The notes: generated by a model not told the origin, from the sequence alone. A stretch of 64,000 bases of DNA from Candidatus Obscuribacteraceae bacterium (GCA_044226015.1 JBGAHS010000011.1:64001-128000), one strand, 5' to 3'; shown: positions 90 to 8,989, numbered from the stretch's first letter. Made by a program: numbers and translations.

Positions 90-485
90 TTATTTAGCGT
101 CTTGAGCTGGCAATTTATCAACTACTTCGCTGAAGCTTTTAACTTCCTGGAGCAATCTTTGCGGTTGCATTCTGGACAACCACAAACCGATAACACGGCG
201 TCTATCTGTTGCCTTTTTCAGGGTTGGCGGACGAACGCCAAGCAGACGATCGCGAATCATTTTATTGCCTTCGCGGAAGTAGCAGTCACCAATTTGGCAA
301 CCAGTAACGACTACTCCGTCAGCACCATTTTTCAAAGCAGCCTCAATCATCAACGGCTGAATCATGCCAGAGCATGGAAACTTAACGACATAGCAACCTG
401 GCATGTCCTTAAGCTGGCTCTTCGAATCCATGATGTTAGTCAGGTCGCAAGAGCGTTCGCAGATCAGTGTCATTATCTTTGGCAT
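90..485 (-). CDS. MvhD/FlpD-family hydrogenase iron-sulfur subunit D-like [2Fe-2S] protein
   Basis: Motifs ICERS, FPCSGMI, GADGVVVTGCQIGDCYFREGN are typical of MvhD. Confidence 0.88.
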   Translation of the reverse strand: MPKIMTLICERSCDLTNIMDSKSQLKDMPGCYVVKFPCSGMIQPLMIEAALKNGADGVVVTGCQIGDCYFREGNKMIRDRLLGVRPPTLKKATDRRRVIGLWLSRMQPQRLLQEVKSFSEVVDKLPAQDAK

Positions 486-494
486 ATCGGCATC

Positions 495-1676
495 CTAGGA
501 TTGAGTAAGAAGAGCTTTGATCTTATTTGTAACTTCAGCATCTGGCTGCTCAGGCAAGTCGATTGCATCGAAAGCACAAGCTCCAACACAAAGTCCACAA
601 CCAGAACAACGGAATGGAATTACAGTAGCGCGCAGTTTGAAACGAGAGCCGGCAGGTGCTGGCACCATTTCGATAGCTTCGTAAGGGCAATCTTTGTCGC
701 ACAACGAGCATCCAGTGCATTTGTTGTCGACGACTGTGGCAGGGTCAAATGGATCGAGCTTGCCGGAAGCGCCTTCAACTAGGAATGGCATCGGAAGGAA
801 TGTGATCAACAAAGTACCGAGAATAATCACGACCCAGAAAGTCATTGGCGACATCTGTGTCAGCATCCAGTATGGGAAAAGGAAGAACCAATCAACATCA
901 AACGCATTTGGTTGTGTTGTGAGGTTAGCCATCTTGCCCATAGTGATTGGGTTGAAGAACACCACCATCAAAACAATCGCCATAAGAGCGTACTGAATCA
1001 CTGGAGGAGCAGTGAGCACTGGGCGAGCCATGCGCACATAGTGCAACCACAAACCGAAGATCAGGAAGAACGACATACCAATGTGGATGAACAGGAAGTT
1101 TGAAAGTGTGAGGTTGGTGATAGCGTTACCGTTTAAGAACCAGGCTTTCAGACCAGGTCCGATAACTGGCAATTGTTCGAAAGCGCTAACGCTCATACGG
1201 CAGAGAACCAGCGAGCGCTCATCCCAAACCAGGTAATATCCGGTTTGACCGATGAATAGCACAATGAGGAAAAGCACGATACCAGTGAACCATTGCAACC
1301 AACGGTATTGCCTATAACGGTCAGTCATCCACACGCGCAAGGCGTGTAAGACGATGGTGAGCACCATCGCATCACCAGCATATCGGTGAATGCCACGCAC
1401 CACATTGCCGAATGGAATCTTATTAGTAATGTAATCAACGGAAGTGAACGCGTTGATCAAATTGCTCGCCGAGTATGCACTATCAATCGTTGGAATGTAA
1501 TAGGCAAACAAGAGCAAGCCTGACAGAAACAAAACCCACAAGAAGAATTGGGGCAGAGCTCCGTGGTAATAGAAAGGATTGTATTTGCTCGTGAGCACCA
1601 TGTTGGTGGCATGCTCGAGCGGCAATCCTATTGTTTTGTTTAGCGCGTCTGTATAGACCTTTTGCTGCTGCGACAT
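495..1676 (-). CDS. Cytochrome b (four heme-ligand His) fused to a C-terminal 2x[4Fe-4S] ferredoxin domain
   Basis: H97/H111 (RGIHRYAGDAMVLTIVLH), H198/H212, TGYYLVW, DWFFL; C-terminal CTGCSLCDKDCP and CSGCGLCVGACA. Confidence 0.9.
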   Translation of the reverse strand: MSQQQKVYTDALNKTIGLPLEHATNMVLTSKYNPFYYHGALPQFFLWVLFLSGLLLFAYYIPTIDSAYSASNLINAFTSVDYITNKIPFGNVVRGIHRYAGDAMVLTIVLHALRVWMTDRYRQYRWLQWFTGIVLFLIVLFIGQTGYYLVWDERSLVLCRMSVSAFEQLPVIGPGLKAWFLNGNAITNLTLSNFLFIHIGMSFFLIFGLWLHYVRMARPVLTAPPVIQYALMAIVLMVVFFNPITMGKMANLTTQPNAFDVDWFFLFPYWMLTQMSPMTFWVVIILGTLLITFLPMPFLVEGASGKLDPFDPATVVDNKCTGCSLCDKDCPYEAIEMVPAPAGSRFKLRATVIPFRCSGCGLCVGACAFDAIDLPEQPDAEVTNKIKALLTQS

Positions 1677-1706
1677 CTATCGACTACCTTTTACTTTACC
1701 CTTCAA

Positions 1707-2222
1707 CTACTTTTTAACTGGCAGAATTGTTTTTTCTTCGGCACCCCAACGACCCATCGCTTGAATAGCGACTGCGCCGAGGAAAAGAGCGACTCCTAAA
1801 AACAATGCATAAGCGTTGTAGACATAGTTTTTGTCTACTTGCAGCAGATCAAGAATCGTTTTGAGATTCTGCTCGCCGAGATTTTGCTGAATGTCTTTTA
1901 CGACTTGCTCACCATATTTGTCGCCGTTGGTTGCAACGATTTGAGCTTTCCAGTTTTTCATTACATCAGCATTTTGTGCGTCAGGAGCTGGCTTAGGACC
2001 AGGCAACATGCCGAGCATCTGAATTCCAAAACCTGCATATTGATTCATCAGCTCTGGAATTCGAACACAAGACTCACCTGACTCGCGTTTTTCCGGGAAA
2101 ACTTGAGCTGGTAAAAGCTCAGCCGCTGGCAAAAACACGAGGCTTGCTACAAGCACGCCAACCGCTGCCAAGAGGCAGAGTCCCATGCTCATAGGGTCTG
2201 GTTTTCTTTCTTCAGGACCCAT
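1707..2222 (-). CDS. Hypothetical 2-TM membrane protein in the bc/cbb3 operon
   Basis: Hydrophobic N- and C-terminal segments; tightly packed in the operon (3 nt from the upstream gene). Confidence 0.7.
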   Translation of the reverse strand: MGPEERKPDPMSMGLCLLAAVGVLVASLVFLPAAELLPAQVFPEKRESGESCVRIPELMNQYAGFGIQMLGMLPGPKPAPDAQNADVMKNWKAQIVATNGDKYGEQVVKDIQQNLGEQNLKTILDLLQVDKNYVYNAYALFLGVALFLGAVAIQAMGRWGAEEKTILPVKK

Positions 2223-2225
2223 TTC

Positions 2226-2555
2226 TTACTCCCTTCCTTCGCTCTTGTCGCCGTTATTGAGATCGTTTCCGACCTTCTTCTCAATGGAATTATTTTTTCT
2301 TTCGTTCAAAGATTTCTCTATTTTTTCAAACAGATCTATGCGCTTGCGCAGATTGCCTTTCTTCTTCTCTTCGACATAGATGTAGTAAGCCTGCACCATG
2401 ACAAAGAAGATAGTAGCGGCAGTTCCACCGATCAGGACACCCCAGTCGCCCAAGCCCCCACTCTGATTGACTTGCCTCCACCCGGCGAAGAACCAGGAGA
2501 GAGCAACAACCGAAGCGGCAAATATGGTGAGTTTGAGCGACCAGTGCATAGTCAT
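2226..2555 (-). CDS. Hypothetical small 2-TM membrane protein with a charged tail
   Basis: Two hydrophobic helices then a Lys/Glu-rich tail; operon spacing; GAGG/AAGG RBS-like sequence upstream. Confidence 0.7.
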   Translation of the reverse strand: MTMHWSLKLTIFAASVVALSWFFAGWRQVNQSGGLGDWGVLIGGTAATIFFVMVQAYYIYVEEKKKGNLRKRIDLFEKIEKSLNERKNNSIEKKVGNDLNNGDKSEGRE

Positions 2556-2572
2556 GACCTTGCCTTACCTCA

Positions 2573-4429
2573 TCAGGATGCAGCTGGAGCTGCAGGTTCT
2601 GGGGTAGGCGCCGCAGGAGCTGGAGCTGGTGGTGTCTTGAACTTCGGCAGCATGACGAAACATGCCACTGTGGTTGCAGCACCTACAGCCATCCAGATCC
2701 AATCGATTTCAGGAACGGCTAGCGGATATGGTGCACCAGACACTGCTTTTTCCAGTCCTGGTGTCATGCGCTTGGTGAAGGTCAAATAGTCGAAACACCA
2801 ACGATTTTGCACCATGTAATCCAGGGTGTTCAGATATGGCACGGCTGTTGGCACGCCGTCTTTGCTGACGACCATGAAGCTAGGAATAGCTTTGAAGAGC
2901 GGGTCTAGCCAACCACCAGCGTCCGGAGCTGTAACGAGTGCATACAAGTCTTGCACTTGTTTTTCGCCTGGGTAACCGTGAGTTGTCACCAACTCATGGT
3001 AGTTCCAGTAGCCCGGATTGTAATTAGGTTTATTGGCTGGGTCGCTGTCGATGAGCACTTTAACGAGTGCTTCCGCCTGCTCGCCCTTCGAGATGCTGCC
3101 CAATGTTTTGCATAGACCATAGGTCCAAGCTTGTGTCAGTGGGCTGAAGAACATTTCGGTGAGAGCCATGTAGTAGTACACAATTGCCCAGAATGTCTGG
3201 ATTGCTGCGGTAATACCCATGACGATACAACCTTTGGCAGCGACTGCTTTTTCCTGAACGGTCTTGAAGTCTTTACCGTAGACCCAGAGTTGCAGAAGTA
3301 TGCCGAGGTCAATCAATCCCCACAAGAATGAGCGCCAATATGGTGGGTCATTGTGGATGTTGGCGATGTTGACGATGATGAGTAGAGAGAACACGATCCA
3401 GCAAACGAAGCCCATCAAAGCAACGAAGAAAATAAGTGGACGCTTGTAAATGTCTTTCTCTGCACCGGTTGCCCATACATCTATGAAGGGCAGCAAAATA
3501 ACCGATATCGGAATGACCATTGTGATTTCAGTAGCAACTACGGGCTCGAGGTATTTGTACATCTGATACAAACCGAGGAAGTACCAGTCCGACAAAATCG
3601 GCAACGGAGTTACGTCAGGGTTGGAACGGTGTCCAAGAGCTGCTGGCATGATGATTGCAATAATCACGACCATCAATAGAACGACCATGCGTTTGGTCCA
3701 ATTAATTGGAATTCGCTTGAAGCCCGTTTTGTAGAAATACAGTTCGACGAAAATAAGTGGTATCGCCGAGAATGCCAGGTGGATAGAGAAGAATCTAGTA
3801 ATAGTTTCTTGCGTGATAGCGCCACCAGCGCCGAGCAAGAACTCTGCAGTGTTCCAACCGAGGTGAACTGATTTGACCAGAGGCAAATAGAAGTCACCCA
3901 TGAATGGGAACTGGTCCATGTACGTCGGGAACGTGGCGAATACCTTCGTAGCCCAAAACGCGCGCTGGTTCCAGATGAGCAGATATCCTGTAAGACCGGA
4001 ATACATAGAGAGGAGCAGAGTAATCAGCGCGATGGCTATATTGAACTCTTTTCCAGGTTTGTAGTCACCGCAAATGAACATGCGGTAAAGACGAATGGTA
4101 GCAGCGATAATCATCGCGTCGGCACCATACTTGTGACATCCTCTCCAGATGTTGCCGAATGGAATTTCGTGCTGAATATGCAGGATGGAGTCGAACGCAG
4201 CGGGCTTGGTCGGTACGTACCAGATGAAAAGAATACATCCAGTAGCCATGACCAGGAACCAGACCAGATAGAAGATTCCGCCTATGCAATAGAACGGATT
4301 CGTCTTGGCCTGCTCCGCATGGTGCTCGTCCATGATGTCGATATTGTTTAGCCGCGTGTTAATCCAGTCGCCAGCTTGCTTCATGAAGCCGGCCATACTG
4401 AATCCACTGGCGTTTGTTGTACTAGGCAA
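2573..4429 (-). CDS. Long cytochrome b (b6 + subunit IV-like fused, extra C-terminal TM/periplasmic region) lacking the heme bH ligands
   Basis: NPFYCIGG, RGCHKYGADAM, TGYLLIWNQRAFWA, RFFSIH, ILSDWYFL; overlaps the Rieske gene stop. Confidence 0.88.
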   Translation of the reverse strand: MPSTTNASGFSMAGFMKQAGDWINTRLNNIDIMDEHHAEQAKTNPFYCIGGIFYLVWFLVMATGCILFIWYVPTKPAAFDSILHIQHEIPFGNIWRGCHKYGADAMIIAATIRLYRMFICGDYKPGKEFNIAIALITLLLSMYSGLTGYLLIWNQRAFWATKVFATFPTYMDQFPFMGDFYLPLVKSVHLGWNTAEFLLGAGGAITQETITRFFSIHLAFSAIPLIFVELYFYKTGFKRIPINWTKRMVVLLMVVIIAIIMPAALGHRSNPDVTPLPILSDWYFLGLYQMYKYLEPVVATEITMVIPISVILLPFIDVWATGAEKDIYKRPLIFFVALMGFVCWIVFSLLIIVNIANIHNDPPYWRSFLWGLIDLGILLQLWVYGKDFKTVQEKAVAAKGCIVMGITAAIQTFWAIVYYYMALTEMFFSPLTQAWTYGLCKTLGSISKGEQAEALVKVLIDSDPANKPNYNPGYWNYHELVTTHGYPGEKQVQDLYALVTAPDAGGWLDPLFKAIPSFMVVSKDGVPTAVPYLNTLDYMVQNRWCFDYLTFTKRMTPGLEKAVSGAPYPLAVPEIDWIWMAVGAATTVACFVMLPKFKTPPAPAPAAPTPEPAAPAAS

Positions 4430-4979
4430 TTCCCCCGGCCTCCAGTGAAACGATACTTATTTTGTCCCCTTCTGTTTTCACAGTGAATTGTCTGGGTGGG
4501 CGAGGTGCTGGTCCTGAGACCACCTTGCCTCCCTGCGCAATGTCATAAACACTCAAATGGCAAGGGCAGGCGAATACCGGTCCTTGCGGTTTAAAGTTGT
4601 AGCCCTTCAAACACTCATCTGGATCCTTCACGAAATTGAAGATGCAACCCAGGTGAGGACAAATACGGCTGTACGCTACTACATCGCCGGTCGGCAGTTT
4701 AACTGCAAAACCAGGAATCTTGCGTACTTCCAGACCTTCAGGATTGTATTCCTTATATGATTGCGAAAACATGAATTGCAAACAGGTCCACTCTTCCGGG
4801 AAGTCTTTATTCGTGAAGGATACTTCTTCCAGCGCTTTAGGCTGGTCAGATGGACCAAGAATGTCCATCGGCTTGATGGTCGGTCTTAGATAACGCATGA
4901 ATGGCGAAAGCAGTAGCCCGAACGTTGCAGCAAGTGGAATTGCTGCCATAAAAGATCTCCTAGTTGTTCCCTCAGCCAT
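4422..4979 (-). CDS. petC: Rieske [2Fe-2S] subunit of a cytochrome bc complex
   Basis: Tat motif TRRSFM; CPHLGC and CPCHLSVY boxes; GPAPRPP. Confidence 0.92.
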   Translation of the reverse strand: MAEGTTRRSFMAAIPLAATFGLLLSPFMRYLRPTIKPMDILGPSDQPKALEEVSFTNKDFPEEWTCLQFMFSQSYKEYNPEGLEVRKIPGFAVKLPTGDVVAYSRICPHLGCIFNFVKDPDECLKGYNFKPQGPVFACPCHLSVYDIAQGGKVVSGPAPRPPRQFTVKTEGDKISIVSLEAGGIA

Positions 4980-5022: not shown

Positions 5023-6021
5023 CTAGTGAGTTTTGTCTTCGAGTTTTCCGTTTATTACATTCTTTGGACTTTCTGCTTGACCGGCATTGTCGTTGTGCGG
5101 AGCATCAGCTTTCTTTTCCAGGTCACTCTTTGTTTCCTGGTCAGGAGTTCCGCCGGTTGAGGTCTCGGTTCCAGTAGCTCCAGTCGCTTCCTCAGGAGTC
5201 TTGGTGGTGTTTTCGCCAGCGTCTTTCGGCTTATCAGATGTTCCAGCAGCTGCTGGAGCTTTAGGAGCGGCCGTAGCGGCAGAGGCAACTTCAGTTGTTG
5301 CAGCATTGCTAACATGGAAGTTACGTACATAAGCGACTAGCTTCTTGATGTAAGCATGGTCGAATTTTACGTTCTTCTTCTTGTCGGTTTTGCCGAGGAA
5401 GTTAGGCATGCCTTCCCACTTGATGCCGTTAGCGATGTGATCGAACAGAGTGTCATCTGTTCTGTCATAAAAGCGTTGGAAAGTCTGGAAGTTTGCTGGG
5501 TTTGGCTCGAGGTTGCGAGCCAGAGGACCGTCGCCATCACCCTTGGTGCCATGGCACACAGCGCAATTAGAACCAAATACAGCATTAACTTCGTCAATTT
5601 CGCCTTGAGTCAGCGGAGGGCAGCCCAGCGAACGAGCATAGAATACGAGGTTCCATGTGTCTTTCGGGCTGATCTTGCCTTGCATATGATGCTGGTCAAG
5701 CTTTCCGTAAGTAAGCGCCTTGTACAGATCAACTGGTTTGACCATCGCCATATAGCGATGATCGTTTACTGCAGCTTTAGCGCCTTCAGGCTTAGTGCCA
5801 CCATCTGCGCCATGGCAGGAAGCACAATTCTGCTTCTCCCAGACCACCTTACCATCTGGAATAGACGGTCTGTCGTCAGGATAGACAATGGTGTCAGTTG
5901 GAGCCAGAGTTTGATTGACGCTGATCAGAGGGTCTGTCAGAGCCACCTTCGTCTCTGTCTGCCCGCAAGATGCGAGAGCAAAGACTACTGGAATTAGGGG
6001 AAGAGTTTTAGTGAGTTTCAT
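5023..6021 (-). CDS. Diheme cytochrome c lipoprotein with a low-complexity tail
   Basis: Lipobox LASC; heme motifs CASCH and CAVCH; distal Met candidates (HHM, GMPNF). Confidence 0.85.
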   Translation of the reverse strand: MKLTKTLPLIPVVFALASCGQTETKVALTDPLISVNQTLAPTDTIVYPDDRPSIPDGKVVWEKQNCASCHGADGGTKPEGAKAAVNDHRYMAMVKPVDLYKALTYGKLDQHHMQGKISPKDTWNLVFYARSLGCPPLTQGEIDEVNAVFGSNCAVCHGTKGDGDGPLARNLEPNPANFQTFQRFYDRTDDTLFDHIANGIKWEGMPNFLGKTDKKKNVKFDHAYIKKLVAYVRNFHVSNAATTEVASAATAAPKAPAAAGTSDKPKDAGENTTKTPEEATGATGTETSTGGTPDQETKSDLEKKADAPHNDNAGQAESPKNVINGKLEDKTH

Positions 6022-6244: not shown

Positions 6245-6487
6245 TTACTCAGCTTGGGCTTTGGCGCGAACTACATCTATACGGGCTTTGGCGATGGATG
6301 AAAGACCAACTTCCTCTCCGTCGTCAAGCATATCGAATTTCGAAGATTCCATATCTTCAAACTCGCCGTTTCTGAAAGCCCACCACATTGCTGCGATCGC
6401 GATCAAAAAGAACAACATGCAAACACCGTAGGCTACGTACACGCCTGGCTGCAAACCAGCCTGGTTTAGTAGGCAATTTGGACACAT
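6245..6487 (-). CDS. ccoS: cbb3-type oxidase maturation protein CcoS/FixS with an N-terminal CPNC extension
   Basis: TM helix followed by WWAFRNGEFEDME (FixS WAxxxGQFDD signature); located next to ccoO. Confidence 0.75.
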   Translation of the reverse strand: MCPNCLLNQAGLQPGVYVAYGVCMLFFLIAIAAMWWAFRNGEFEDMESSKFDMLDDGEEVGLSSIAKARIDVVRAKAQAE

Positions 6488-6489
6488 GA

Positions 6490-7599
6490 TTAATGCCCTC
6501 CTGCTGGTGCTGGTGCATCGGTGTGCACGACAGGAGCCGGCGCACCCAAGCCCTTAGTCAAGCTTGCTGGTGGATTTGTGATGGTAGAACTATTGTCCGG
6601 GTTCTTCGTGCCATCGCTGTTGTCTTCCCAATAAGTGGATTCCACAACAGACTCACCTGGTTCAGGTGCAGACTCAGCAGAACCGCTCTTCGGTTCATAA
6701 ACCTGGTTAGACAAACGTGGCAGCCTGGTTGGTTCGACCTTGTTAAGCTGGTCAATATTATTGACTGTCTCTTCGTGGTCTTTCTGCAATGTCTTCAGGT
6801 AAGCGACTAGGTACCACATTTGTTCTTCAGAGAGAATTTCGCCAAAGTGTGGCATGCGAGTACCGGCTACACCTTCTCTGATTCTGTAGAACCAAAAGGT
6901 ATCAGGATATTGCTTGAAGAAGTCTCTGGTGAAGTTAGCTGGTTTCTTCTCGAGGGTAATGGAGTTAGGACCATTTCCGCGACCTTCCAAACCATGGCAT
7001 ACTGCGCAGTTTTGCGTGTAGATACCACGACCAGCATTGGCAGCAGCATCAGCTTCAGTATCAACTTTCTTTCTTGCCAGAAACGCATCGTATTCTTCTG
7101 GAGCTTGAACGTAGGTTGTGACCTTACGGTTGTTGCCGAGTGATTGCAGGTAAGCAACCAGGTCGTTCATGTCGCGATCAGAAAGGAAGCTGAAACTTGG
7201 CATGATGGAACCTGGCTTCACAGCACGTGGCTGCACCAGGTGAGCCTTCTGCCACTCGGAAGCCATGCGAAGACCTTCGTTGGTCAAGTCAGGACCAGTA
7301 CGAGCAGTTCCTAATTGGTGAGGAGTTTCGTTAACATAGTCACCAGCCTTAACGAGTGGACCATAACCGCGGTCTTGCAAGCGAGTGAACTGCGTATGGC
7401 AGTAGAAACAACCCTCACGTACGTAGACCTGGCGACCACGCTCGGGGTCTGCGACCTTGGCAAATGGAGTCTCTTTATAAGCATTAGCAGATGACGTAAG
7501 CTTCGGATTGAAGAGCACCATCGGCAGTAGCACCGTCGCCGTAATAATGGCGAAGAAGGTGATGATGATACCAGTGGCGCCTAGGCGGTAACCGTTCAT
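6490..7599 (-). CDS. ccoO: cbb3-type cytochrome c oxidase subunit II fused to a second cytochrome c domain
   Basis: GRQVYVREGCFYCHTQ, GTARTGPDL, PGSIMPSF; second heme motif CAVCH ... GTRMPHF. Confidence 0.92.
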   Translation of the reverse strand: MNGYRLGATGIIITFFAIITATVLLPMVLFNPKLTSSANAYKETPFAKVADPERGRQVYVREGCFYCHTQFTRLQDRGYGPLVKAGDYVNETPHQLGTARTGPDLTNEGLRMASEWQKAHLVQPRAVKPGSIMPSFSFLSDRDMNDLVAYLQSLGNNRKVTTYVQAPEEYDAFLARKKVDTEADAAANAGRGIYTQNCAVCHGLEGRGNGPNSITLEKKPANFTRDFFKQYPDTFWFYRIREGVAGTRMPHFGEILSEEQMWYLVAYLKTLQKDHEETVNNIDQLNKVEPTRLPRLSNQVYEPKSGSAESAPEPGESVVESTYWEDNSDGTKNPDNSSTITNPPASLTKGLGAPAPVVHTDAPAPAGGH

Positions 7600-7600
7600 T

Positions 7601-8989
7601 TTAAGCCTTTACCTCCTGAACTTTAGCCTTCTGAGCTGTAGCTGACGACTTGGAGTAAAGTGTCTTCCAAGCGTTATAGCCGAATAGGACTTGACCCAGA
7701 ACGATCATGATTCCGCTGATGGAACGAAGAATCCAGTAAGGCTTCAGTTCGGTTCCCCACAGATCCACTGGAATGGCGTGGTGCCAGCCAGCTGATTGAA
7801 TCAGACCTGCCACAGTCAATGAAGACATCATGAGTCCAAAGCCTGCGGTCTTGAGCCACCAATGTGCCCGGATAAGTCCCTGACTATGCCATTCTCTTCC
7901 GGTGAGCCTGGGCAATCCATAATATATAGATGCGACTGTGATGAATGAGAAGGTTCCAAGAAGTGCAAGGTGAGCATGTCCGACCACCCATTGTGTGAAG
8001 TGGAGGTACCAGTTAACCCAACGAGTTGCTTGGAAAGGACCTTGCGTACAAGTAATCAAATAGAAGATGTTTGATGTGAGCACAAAGCGCAGTGGGATGT
8101 CAGTCACGCACATCTGCCATTTGCCTTTCATGGTCATGAAGAAGTTCGTAAGAACGGTCATAACTGGTACGAGCAAAAATACTGACGAGATGATCGCGAT
8201 AGCTTTCAACCACTCAGGTACAGGAGACTGGGTGATGTGGTGTGTGCCGGTAGGCGCGTAGAAGAGAGCGATGCCCCAGAATCCCAACATGGAGAGTCCG
8301 TGGCTGTAGAGTGGGTTCTGAGTGATACGTGGTAGCAGGTAGTACATCATGCCTACGCCCACTGTCGTGAACCACATACCGAGAATGTTGTGTCCGTAGA
8401 ACCATCCGATGATGGCATCGTTCAAACCTGGGAGAGCAACGAAGGTTCTCTGCCCGATGATGTAGACCAGAGGAAACCAAAAAAGCGCTCCGAGAAAATA
8501 CCAGAGCGACACATAGAGCTTTTTGATTTTGCGATTTACGACGGTCATATATAGATTGAGCGCCGTACAAATTAGTGCCACCACTACGAGACAGTCGAGA
8601 ATGGCACCTAACTCTGCGTACTCACGACCTTCCGTGAACCCGTTCAACAGCGTGCACATCGCACCGACCATCAACAAATTCCACGCCCACATGGTGAAGT
8701 TGCCGAGGCGTTCACTCCAGAGCTTTGATTTGGTGAGTGATGGAATCATGTAGAACATTGAACCTACATAACCCATCGACAGCCAACCTATGGCCACCGT
8801 GTTCACGTGCCACATACGTAAATGGGGCATCGAGAGCTGGGGCACATTGTGGACCAGGTCTGGGAAAGAGAACTCGAGTCCGGCAAGCATTCCGGCTCCC
8901 ATTCCTAAAATGGACCAGAAAATTGCGGAAAGGATGAAATTGCGCGCCGCGCTTCCCTCCCTGTCGCTTAATAGCCTGTCAACTAACAT
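7601..8989 (-). CDS. ccoN: cbb3-type (C-family) heme-copper oxidase subunit I
   Basis: RMWHVN, EGREYAE, WFYGHN, FYAPTGTHH, HFTQWVVGHAH; about 12 TM segments. Confidence 0.95.
   Translation of the reverse strand: MLVDRLLSDREGSAARNFILSAIFWSILGMGAGMLAGLEFSFPDLVHNVPQLSMPHLRMWHVNTVAIGWLSMGYVGSMFYMIPSLTKSKLWSERLGNFTMWAWNLLMVGAMCTLLNGFTEGREYAELGAILDCLVVVALICTALNLYMTVVNRKIKKLYVSLWYFLGALFWFPLVYIIGQRTFVALPGLNDAIIGWFYGHNILGMWFTTVGVGMMYYLLPRITQNPLYSHGLSMLGFWGIALFYAPTGTHHITQSPVPEWLKAIAIISSVFLLVPVMTVLTNFFMTMKGKWQMCVTDIPLRFVLTSNIFYLITCTQGPFQATRWVNWYLHFTQWVVGHAHLALLGTFSFITVASIYYGLPRLTGREWHSQGLIRAHWWLKTAGFGLMMSSLTVAGLIQSAGWHHAIPVDLWGTELKPYWILRSISGIMIVLGQVLFGYNAWKTLYSKSSATAQKAKVQEVKA

Follow-up and report, generated by a model that had tools for sequence, protein, structure and literature searches.

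Two cytochrome b genes of one minus-strand operon, here called A (618 aa) and B (393 aa), lie in the 64,000-nucleotide stretch of a Candidatus Obscuribacteraceae genome (GCA_044226015.1, JBGAHS010000011.1:64001-128000) that we refer to as the window and whose coordinates we use throughout. A retains the quinol-oxidation (Qo) site and the ligands of the low-potential heme (bL) and has lost both ligands of the high-potential heme (bH); B has all four histidine ligands and an eroded Qo region, and ends in a cytoplasmic ferredoxin domain. A/B is a genuine variant of the Rieske/cytochrome b enzymes, strongly conserved and found in several phyla, and on the sequence features tested it stands outside the canonical Q-cycle and b6f types. 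The reading we prefer, with a probability of roughly 0.4, is that A and B form a heterodimer that carries out oxygen-driven bifurcation of menaquinol and exports one electron to cytoplasmic carriers. The source genome (G000, 92% complete) is assigned by kinship and the names of homologues to the Obscuribacterales within the Vampirovibrionia, hereafter the class, for which a core set of 41 loci was compiled from the window and 40 further loci, picked for spread among class genomes with a match. An initial annotation of the window had covered the 3' half of the operon; the system reaches on to position 8989.

Alignment of A to solved cytochrome b6 confirmed the initial annotation in placing H99 and H217 at the bL positions, with the Qo motifs WNQRAFWA and SDWY present. 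The proposed loss of both bH ligands was equally clear. R113 and Y231 occupy the bH positions, and a profile alignment of B against A pairs H97/H99, H111/R113, H198/H217 and H212/Y231 with neither helix requiring a gap. Among the 41 class loci, 31 have R and 10 have K at position 113, which is R in 120/120 of the homologues listed, while Y231 and E229, two residues ahead of it, are found in all 41 loci and in all 120 homologues listed. Across the 41 loci, then, the Qo-bearing subunit never has all four histidines. The class alignment shows no His, Met or Cys conserved around the vacated site; substitute bH ligands, which the initial annotation had said would refute its reading, were thus not found. 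In the window copy of A the heme ci position is a Cys (C48, in FYCIGG), but heme ci was ruled out as a stand-in cofactor on the cytoplasmic (n) side of A because this Cys occurs in 1/41 loci; it is present in 2 of the 120 homologues listed. The NWxxG motif was also said to be lost. This is true of its Trp, gone class-wide, and not of its Gly, as position 134 is G in 14/41 loci and in 74 of the 120 homologues listed. Structure models, used here for the fold, confirm a cytochrome b fold for both A and B.

The conserved Arg, Glu and Tyr could simply fill the vacated bH cavity of A. It is very improbable that they belong instead to an unrecognized cytoplasmic-side cofactor or quinone site, or that the Fe-S arm of B is a redox or oxygen sensor or an overflow valve, on an enzyme running a near-normal Q-cycle across the dimer with the bH of B. 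The class does keep R113 (as R/K), E229 and Y231 without drift, an acidic IDxFDE motif on the cytoplasmic side (residues 31-35) is conserved in 55-57 of 57 sequences, and an unexpected n-side heme has been predicted in anammox complexes (PMC12954380). Against this stand the missing His, Met and Cys, and the retention across phyla of the cluster cysteines of B and MvhD which, with the NAD module of Caldisericota described below, suggests real electron flux. The IDxFDE motif could face basic residues of B or MvhD.

For B, the open reading frames and motifs were as the initial annotation had described them. All four His ligands (H97/111/198/212) are present in 40/40 class loci, the Qo region is eroded (WDERSLVL, VDWF), two CxxCxxCxxxC motifs (C320-C330 and C357-C367) follow, and an MvhD-like gene comes next. 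The 2x[4Fe-4S] domain is most like the C-terminal ferredoxin domain of HdrA, which we take to be the docking place of MvhD. All eight cluster cysteines of B and the four of MvhD are kept across phyla, the latter in 44/44 class sequences; MvhD gave a single match per genome in 5/5 genomes and is the sole MvhD found in the source genome. Class MvhD carries a basic patch (mean +7 over 45 residues, vs +1.8 in 11 Caldisericota sequences) that would suit an acidic ferredoxin and says nothing on the direction of flow. The residue five past the last His of B, presumably the one used at the quinone-reduction (Qi) site (His in bc1, Arg in b6), is S/T/A in 39/40 class loci and in 15/15 Caldisericota loci; in ordinary cytochromes b the same position is R in 31 of the 39 sequences, out of about 63, that could be parsed by pattern. 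The heme ci cysteine is absent as well. The usual Qi residue is thus absent from B, though on sequence a remodelled site is conceivable. H38 and R215/R218 are invariant in the class, with H38 missing in several other phyla.

Conservation of the two subunits is mirrored. Averaged over alignment columns from 40 matched genomes, conservation at Qo reaches 0.98 (cd1) and 0.88 (ef) in A, which scores 0.66, 0.64 and 0.54 in three cytoplasmic-side segments, whereas B scores 0.58 and 0.46 at Qo and 0.90, 0.81 and 0.69 on the cytoplasmic side. These values support the view that the losses in A and B are complementary and non-random, as the initial annotation had anticipated for the orthologues. The two genes also occur together. 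Among 401 class genomes, A is found in 167, B in 165 and both in 161, and every one of the ten genomes with A or B alone has <90% completeness or >5% contamination, which is why A and B are found in the identical 84 of the 299 good-quality genomes. Kin are not independent, and the 84/84 co-occurrence is therefore to be read as retention, not as a statistical test. The order Rieske, A, B, mvhD is kept in 40/41 loci, the exception being a split operon with B on another contig. A split operon is seen at locus L084 and, between A and B, in genome G458, which nevertheless has both; in G497 the two genes are on different contigs. In a 58%-complete genome (G312 C3:281922-285556) both cytochrome b genes contain stops, from decay or assembly error. 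In a phylogenetic tree, A (29 rows, support 99) and B (22 rows, support 94) each fall on one side of a branch and both group apart from cyanobacterial b6; as a quick search with long branches, a sample skewed to A-like sequences and 2/143 rows dropped by a length filter, the tree is no proof that the pair arose by duplication.

Divergent bH-less relatives turned up when 1.84 billion representatives were searched with a profile, and the relatives seeded a genome scan that returned at least 80 loci. Of the 80 listed, 19 have a bH-less A; B accompanies it in 16, with mvhD also in 14, and the remaining three, without B, end at a contig edge. In the other 61 loci listed, the helix-B bH position is His and no cytochrome b is fused to a ferredoxin. 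Carriers of A and B among those listed belong to Sysuimicrobiota (one record labelled Armatimonadota), Holophagaceae, Anaerolineae (Chloroflexota), Planctomycetota and Caldisericia. A occurs in 25 of 93 Caldisericota genomes. Fifteen of 18 further Caldisericota loci share the gene order Rieske, B and MvhD, followed by a 2x[4Fe-4S] protein, then an AsrA/HydB-like protein, an AsrB/HydG-like FAD/NAD protein, and lastly A with the small membrane gene; the other three are cut by contig ends and retain this order. The three genes between MvhD and A, which we label Flx-like, stand in the order of flx-hdr clusters. PDWY is found in A of 18/18 loci, the Qo region of B is shorter by 14-19 residues, and the cluster keeps the pair and contains no oxidase. 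This is the one place where a flavoprotein was found beside the system. The initial annotation had proposed looking for such a partner beyond position 1 and had linked MvhD to Hdr-type flavoenzymes, but the open reading frames inspected in the 15 kb past position 1 include no flavoprotein, Hdr or hydrogenase gene after mvhD. A promoter and terminator scan after mvhD gave one site per kind, which equals chance level.

A and B probably reside in one complex. For A (residues 18-400) modelled together with B and four hemes, the prediction gave 0.32 and the best control 0.00, a weak pass in which the runs shared at least 84% of contacts and partner pLDDT (predicted local distance difference test) was at least 72. 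The mark was reached by 116/157 solved pairs and by 2/215 mismatched pairs, and scores up to 0.60 with the mark reached comprise only 18 solved pairs and both of the mismatches. Since cytochrome b dimers have already been solved, this pass may reflect mere likeness. The functional argument is the stronger one. A conserved A needs an outlet because a Qo site with bL alone has none, and the engineered bH-less b6f, QiKO, works at about 5% turnover (PMC3112540). By analogy, a bL-only enzyme, slow and oxygen-sensitive in the light, would fit poorly with 98% conservation of the Qo helix.

The quinone of this enzyme looks to be menaquinone only, judging from the genes of the class. Two MqnC/E-like paralogues are present in 41/41 class genomes (not every match over cut-off), and the source genome has an MqnP-like prenyltransferase; its second UbiA-family gene was rejected as a quinone prenyltransferase. 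Chorismate lyase, of the ubiquinone/plastoquinone route, had no match in 5/5 genomes, a weak test whose control matched E. coli but not Synechococcus, and the class has been described as being without plastoquinone genes (PMC12998194). The Rieske ligand motifs CPHLGC and CPCH are intact in 41/41 loci, with the signature S-Y in 30 and S-F in 11, corresponding to the high and mid-high potential Rieske classes (PMC4122944). Anammox Rieske proteins with such signatures measured +303 and +335 mV, from which a bL near -475 mV, low enough for NAD(P)+ reduction, was deduced (PMC12954380). A high-potential Rieske motif alongside menaquinone genes would be a mismatch like that measured in anammox. With assumed potentials of -80 mV for menaquinone and +300 mV for Rieske, the lower limit for the second electron comes to -460 mV, which a membrane potential of 150 mV would raise to about -310 mV.

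The arrangement that we infer, from the heterodimer and its cofactor contents to the potentials, direction and partner, would work as follows. Rieske, A, B, MvhD and two small membrane proteins would make up a single membrane complex that feeds the co-encoded cbb3 oxidase, an asymmetric bc dimer with one Qo site, in A, and no working Qi. Menaquinol would be oxidized at the Qo of A. The high-potential electron would pass through Rieske and cytochrome c to CcoO/N and O2, with the diheme cytochrome c of the operon as the likely connection between Rieske and CcoO. The low-potential electron would cross the dimer from bL of A to bL of B, and continue through bH and the two [4Fe-4S] clusters of B to MvhD. 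From there it would reach a cytoplasmic carrier at about the NAD(P) level, through the Flx-like NAD module in Caldisericota and a putative soluble carrier in the source organism. Bifurcation would thereby yield a low-potential reductant in place of closing the Q-cycle, to be used directly or returned via a proton-pumping complex I without NuoEFG. The source genome does have a nuoABCDHIJ-type cluster without EFG. Export is narrowly favored because there is no clear Qi site and O2 serves as sink, and the direction may differ between lineages.

Several observations weigh against export by such a heterodimer. Its energetics appear marginal, as reduction at the NAD level is borderline and reduction at the ferredoxin level is doubtful, being out of reach under full membrane potential. 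Of the heterodimer wired to ferredoxin and MvhD in the initial annotation, the pairing of A with B gained the weak pass, and ferredoxin as the end point is doubtful by this arithmetic. The Caldisericota Rieske is of the low-potential G-F type in 15/15 loci, which sets the limit at about -310 mV even before membrane potential. A high-potential acceptor in Caldisericota was sought and none was found by family searches (class I cytochrome c in 0/5, PF13435 multiheme cytochromes in 0/5, heme-copper oxidase in 0/2), though ccm genes are present. A Ser-type Rieske is not exclusive to the pair, as an S-F motif adjoins a four-His PEWY cytochrome b in the source genome, and a Planctomycetota locus (L124) with A and B showed no Rieske gene over its 16 kb. 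Neither NuoF nor NDH-2 was found in the source genome at its 92% completeness, and for this reason it would seem short of electron entries, not of exits. No common partner of MvhD emerged, FlxB/HydB-like genes being over cut-off in only 10/41 class genomes. Finally, B-type fusions also exist without Rieske or A.

The last point bears on a less likely but live alternative, in which one operon encodes separate units: B-MvhD would be a stand-alone transmembrane wire or quinone-reactive module for the heme-copper oxidase, like the 'PDWF-FeS' fusions that have no Rieske, and A with Rieske a one-heme quinol:cytochrome c oxidoreductase without a Q-cycle. On the Defluviimonas plasmid NZ_CP156080.1 (L185:4819-10937), a cytochrome b-ferredoxin-MvhD fusion that falls inside the B group in the tree adjoins a heme-copper oxidase subunit, cyoE and SCO, with no Rieske and no A in the 19 kb shown. 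Fusions of cytochrome b, FeS domain and MvhD have been published, the Defluviimonas one being of the type named 'PDWF-FeS' (PMC4122944), a bH-less b6f still supports slow growth (PMC3112540), and the separation of A from B in G458 and G497 is compatible with independent units. Such units would nevertheless leave the 98% Qo-helix conservation to a slow enzyme that is oxygen-sensitive in the light. Moreover, A is never without B in the good-quality class genomes or in the long-enough loci listed from other phyla, and the Caldisericota clusters keep both genes although they contain no oxidase. The layout of the Defluviimonas plasmid resembles that of the eNOR operon in the accessible text of bioRxiv 10.64898/2026.01.22.701106.

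Reverse flow, which we also regard as less likely but live, and slightly more probable than separate units, would take electrons from ferredoxin or NADH through MvhD and the clusters of B to menaquinone at a remodelled cytoplasmic-side site, where they would be joined by the Qo electron via bL-bL-bH. This would amount to Mitchell's original Q-cycle with a built-in dehydrogenase input, a compact chain from donor to O2. It would be downhill in every lineage, including the Caldisericota with their low-potential Rieske, and ferredoxin input at the n-side of b6f has already been proposed (PMC5600118). NuoF-like genes occur in 2/41 class genomes and NDH-2 in 22/41, yet 2-oxoacid:ferredoxin oxidoreductases were found in 5/5, the source genome among them, and the cytoplasmic side of B is well conserved, down to its class-invariant H38 and R215/R218. 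The basic patch of class MvhD agrees with a ferredoxin donor and is neutral as to direction. However, B has neither the usual Qi residue nor the heme ci Cys, several other phyla lack H38, and without Qi the input would short-circuit to Rieske and waste the gradient. NuoD-type complex I, which could accept ferredoxin, is already present in 5/5 genomes, and the combination of a high-potential Rieske motif with menaquinone would be left unexplained.

The fused complex III-IV operon of Melainabacteria/Vampirovibrionia was reportedly described by Soo and colleagues in 2017. Our locus agrees with the definition of that operon in having a C-family oxidase, Rieske and two cytochrome b genes together. 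A C-family oxygen reductase, two cytochrome bc-related genes and a Rieske gene are on record for the class (10.1101/531145, PMC6349859), with the cytochrome genes annotated as b6f subunits in PMC6349859; the accessible text of both is silent on the bH loss, the ferredoxin fusion, MvhD and the mechanism. Canonical bc1 and b6f share with A/B the fold of both subunits, the bL ligands, the Qo of A, Rieske and a cytochrome c acceptor. They differ in that here Qo and bH are never in one cytochrome b, there is no conserved heme ci Cys (found in 1/41 A and replaced by Tyr in B) and no usual Qi residue, both subunits are fused instead of split, and a cytoplasmic Fe-S arm is added.

The anammox Rieske/cytochrome b complexes Kustd1480-85 and Kuste4569-74 (PMC12954380) are most likely the closest functional analogue, and A/B would by that analogy work alike. 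Common to both would be menaquinone together with a high-potential Rieske, which the pathway genes and the Ser-type motif suggest for the class though not for Caldisericota, and a cytoplasmic Fe-S chain, a doubtful quinone-reduction site and proposed NAD(P)H formation. In the anammox case the models are homodimers that contain bN and cN hemes, the NAD(P) oxidoreductase is encoded in the operon and nitrite is the sink, whereas our system, seen through its genes, has two unlike cytochromes b, an HdrA-type ferredoxin domain with MvhD, and O2 as sink. No NAD(P) oxidoreductase is present in our operon, and the Flx-like module belongs to the Caldisericota version only. B has the composition of the 'PDWF-FeS' clade of Kao and Hunte (PMC4122944), i.e., cytochrome b, 4Fe-4S domain and MvhD, here in split form; no bH-less partner is described in the accessible text. 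Sequences without all four His were dropped in that study. Such a filter would remove A, and may therefore explain the gap in the literature.

The same fusion appears in eNOR-linked cytochrome b-FeS genes (bioRxiv 10.64898/2026.01.22.701106), for which NO reduction coupled to NAD+ reduction has been proposed, with no bH-less partner described in the part of the preprint available. Flx-Hdr and HdrA-MvhD modules resemble our system in the HdrA-like ferredoxin domain, in MvhD and, in Caldisericota, in the three Flx-like genes. They differ from it in that a membrane cytochrome b here takes the place of HdrA, and the clusters have no bifurcating HdrA flavin and no HdrBC. No HdrA or Flx genes are found in our operon; HdrA was not searched genome-wide. 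His-deficient cytochromes b of Pyrobaculum and of cyanobacterial subfamily K have lost bH ligation through a single ligand each, with no complementary Fe-S partner in the descriptions available. The loss of bH ligation is what A has in common with these and with QiKO b6f, in which it was engineered (PMC3112540). The operon, the cytochrome b-FeS-MvhD fusions, single-ligand losses and the idea of NAD(P) reduction by Rieske/cytochrome b are thus already known. In the open literature, subscription papers and supplements being outside the scope, we found no bH-less Qo subunit paired with an Fe-S-fused partner and no Caldisericota Flx form.

Whether electrons pass between the bL hemes of two monomers during normal turnover has been studied with engineered asymmetric bc fusions (PMC4330944, PMC3276305). 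A/B looks like a natural asymmetric enzyme in which the bL-bL crossing would be compulsory. If bifurcation is true, it would provide a second testable case of quinone bifurcation toward cytoplasmic reductant, so far proposed for the anammox complexes only. This is the complex III of an aerobic operon in a sister class of the oxygenic cyanobacteria, and its mechanism bears on the uptake of O2 respiration with a menaquinone pool. Even with inward flow, a dehydrogenase arm built into complex III would be a novel design. We consider it doubtful that the proposal extends to a heterodimeric complex III in at least six bacterial phyla, with an HdrA/MvhD-type wire in place of Qi and O2-driven bifurcation of menaquinol to reductant at NAD(P)H or ferredoxin level, perhaps recycled via NuoEFG-less complex I so that an aerobic chain based on menaquinone yields more protons; under that wider reading, bL-bL transfer between monomers would be an obligatory catalytic path.

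The ten genes of the operon are, in order, ccoN, ccoO, ccoS, diheme cytochrome c, Rieske, A, two genes for small membrane proteins, B and mvhD (Table 1). CcoN matches TIGR00780 (E 1e-84, under the curated cut-off) and keeps its position in 41/41 loci. No family was found for either of the small membrane proteins by family search; the position of the first, after A, is kept in Caldisericota and other phyla. Residues ~430-575 of A make up an order-specific periplasmic domain to which no role is assigned.

Table 1. Genes and sites of the A/B operon in the window
Feature	Position	Strand	Remarks
ccoN	7601..8989	-	C-family (cbb3) oxygen reductase catalytic subunit; COX1 E 2e-81
ccoO fused to second cytochrome c domain	6490..7599	-	FixO plus Cytochrom_C; PRK14486-type
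ccoS/fixS maturation protein	6245..6487	-	PF03597 E 7e-9
Diheme class I cytochrome c, probable lipoprotein	5023..6021	-	two CxxCH, LASC motif; Cytochrome_CBB3
Rieske [2Fe-2S] protein	4422..4979	-	PF00355; CPCHLSVY (S-Y), high-potential-type signature
Cytochrome b subunit A, 618 aa	2573..4429	-	Qo and, by its ligands, heme bL only; b6/subunit IV fused, extra helices, periplasmic domain
R113 of A, in place of helix-B bH His	4091..4093	-	R/K in 41/41 loci
Y231 of A, in place of helix-D bH His	3737..3739	-	Y in 41/41 loci
SDWY Qo motif of A, residues 280-283	3581..3592	-	41/41 loci; PDWY in Caldisericota
Small two-helix membrane protein directly after A	2226..2555	-	two predicted helices; probable subunit
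Second two-helix membrane protein	1707..2222	-	two predicted helices; recognizable in same-order loci only
Cytochrome b subunit B, 393 aa	495..1676	-	ligands for hemes bL and bH, eroded Qo, six helices by homology, cytoplasmic ferredoxin domain
2x[4Fe-4S] domain of B	552..740	-	HdrA2 model positions 566-642; PDB HdrA matches
MvhD/FlpD-like [2Fe-2S] protein, 131 aa	90..485	-	PF02662, Pfam E 3e-21; C9/38/63/68; last operon gene

Elsewhere in the source genome, a nitrate reductase-like operon (G000 C12:416159-423099) contains a 438-aa NarI-like open reading frame with a Rieske-type CPCH (S-F); next to it come a four-His PEWY cytochrome b and then a cytochrome c. An ordinary G-Y Rieske, as would be expected for menaquinone, adjoins a four-His PEWY cytochrome b at G000 C4:145215-149404, where two flanking membrane proteins resemble cytochrome bd subunit I by eye. 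Further heme-copper family genes, with frames of ~880-940 aa and probably qNOR-like, lie at G000 C1:305459 and C8:473659. Genes for a group 3b-like NiFe hydrogenase (HydB/HydG-like, small and large subunits) cluster with those for its maturation at G000 C9:265534-269510, and in same-order genomes only; the cluster accounts for the only FlxA/B-like matches of the source genome and might supply an MvhD partner, though it is not linked to mvhD. Group 3b hydrogenase was rejected as a general MvhD partner, with 10/41 class genomes, all of one order.

Among the relatives, the Planctomycetota locus (L124:705-7739) carries divergent ccoN, ccoO, cytochrome c, A, B and an extended MvhD. The Caldisericota anaerobes of loci L211-L214 have cytochrome c maturation genes and gave no c-type cytochrome in two family searches. 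In several Caldisericota A (L186-L190, L197) the outer loop that follows helix A is enlarged by an acidic insertion of ~300 residues which, free of heme-binding motif, could bind the missing electron acceptor.

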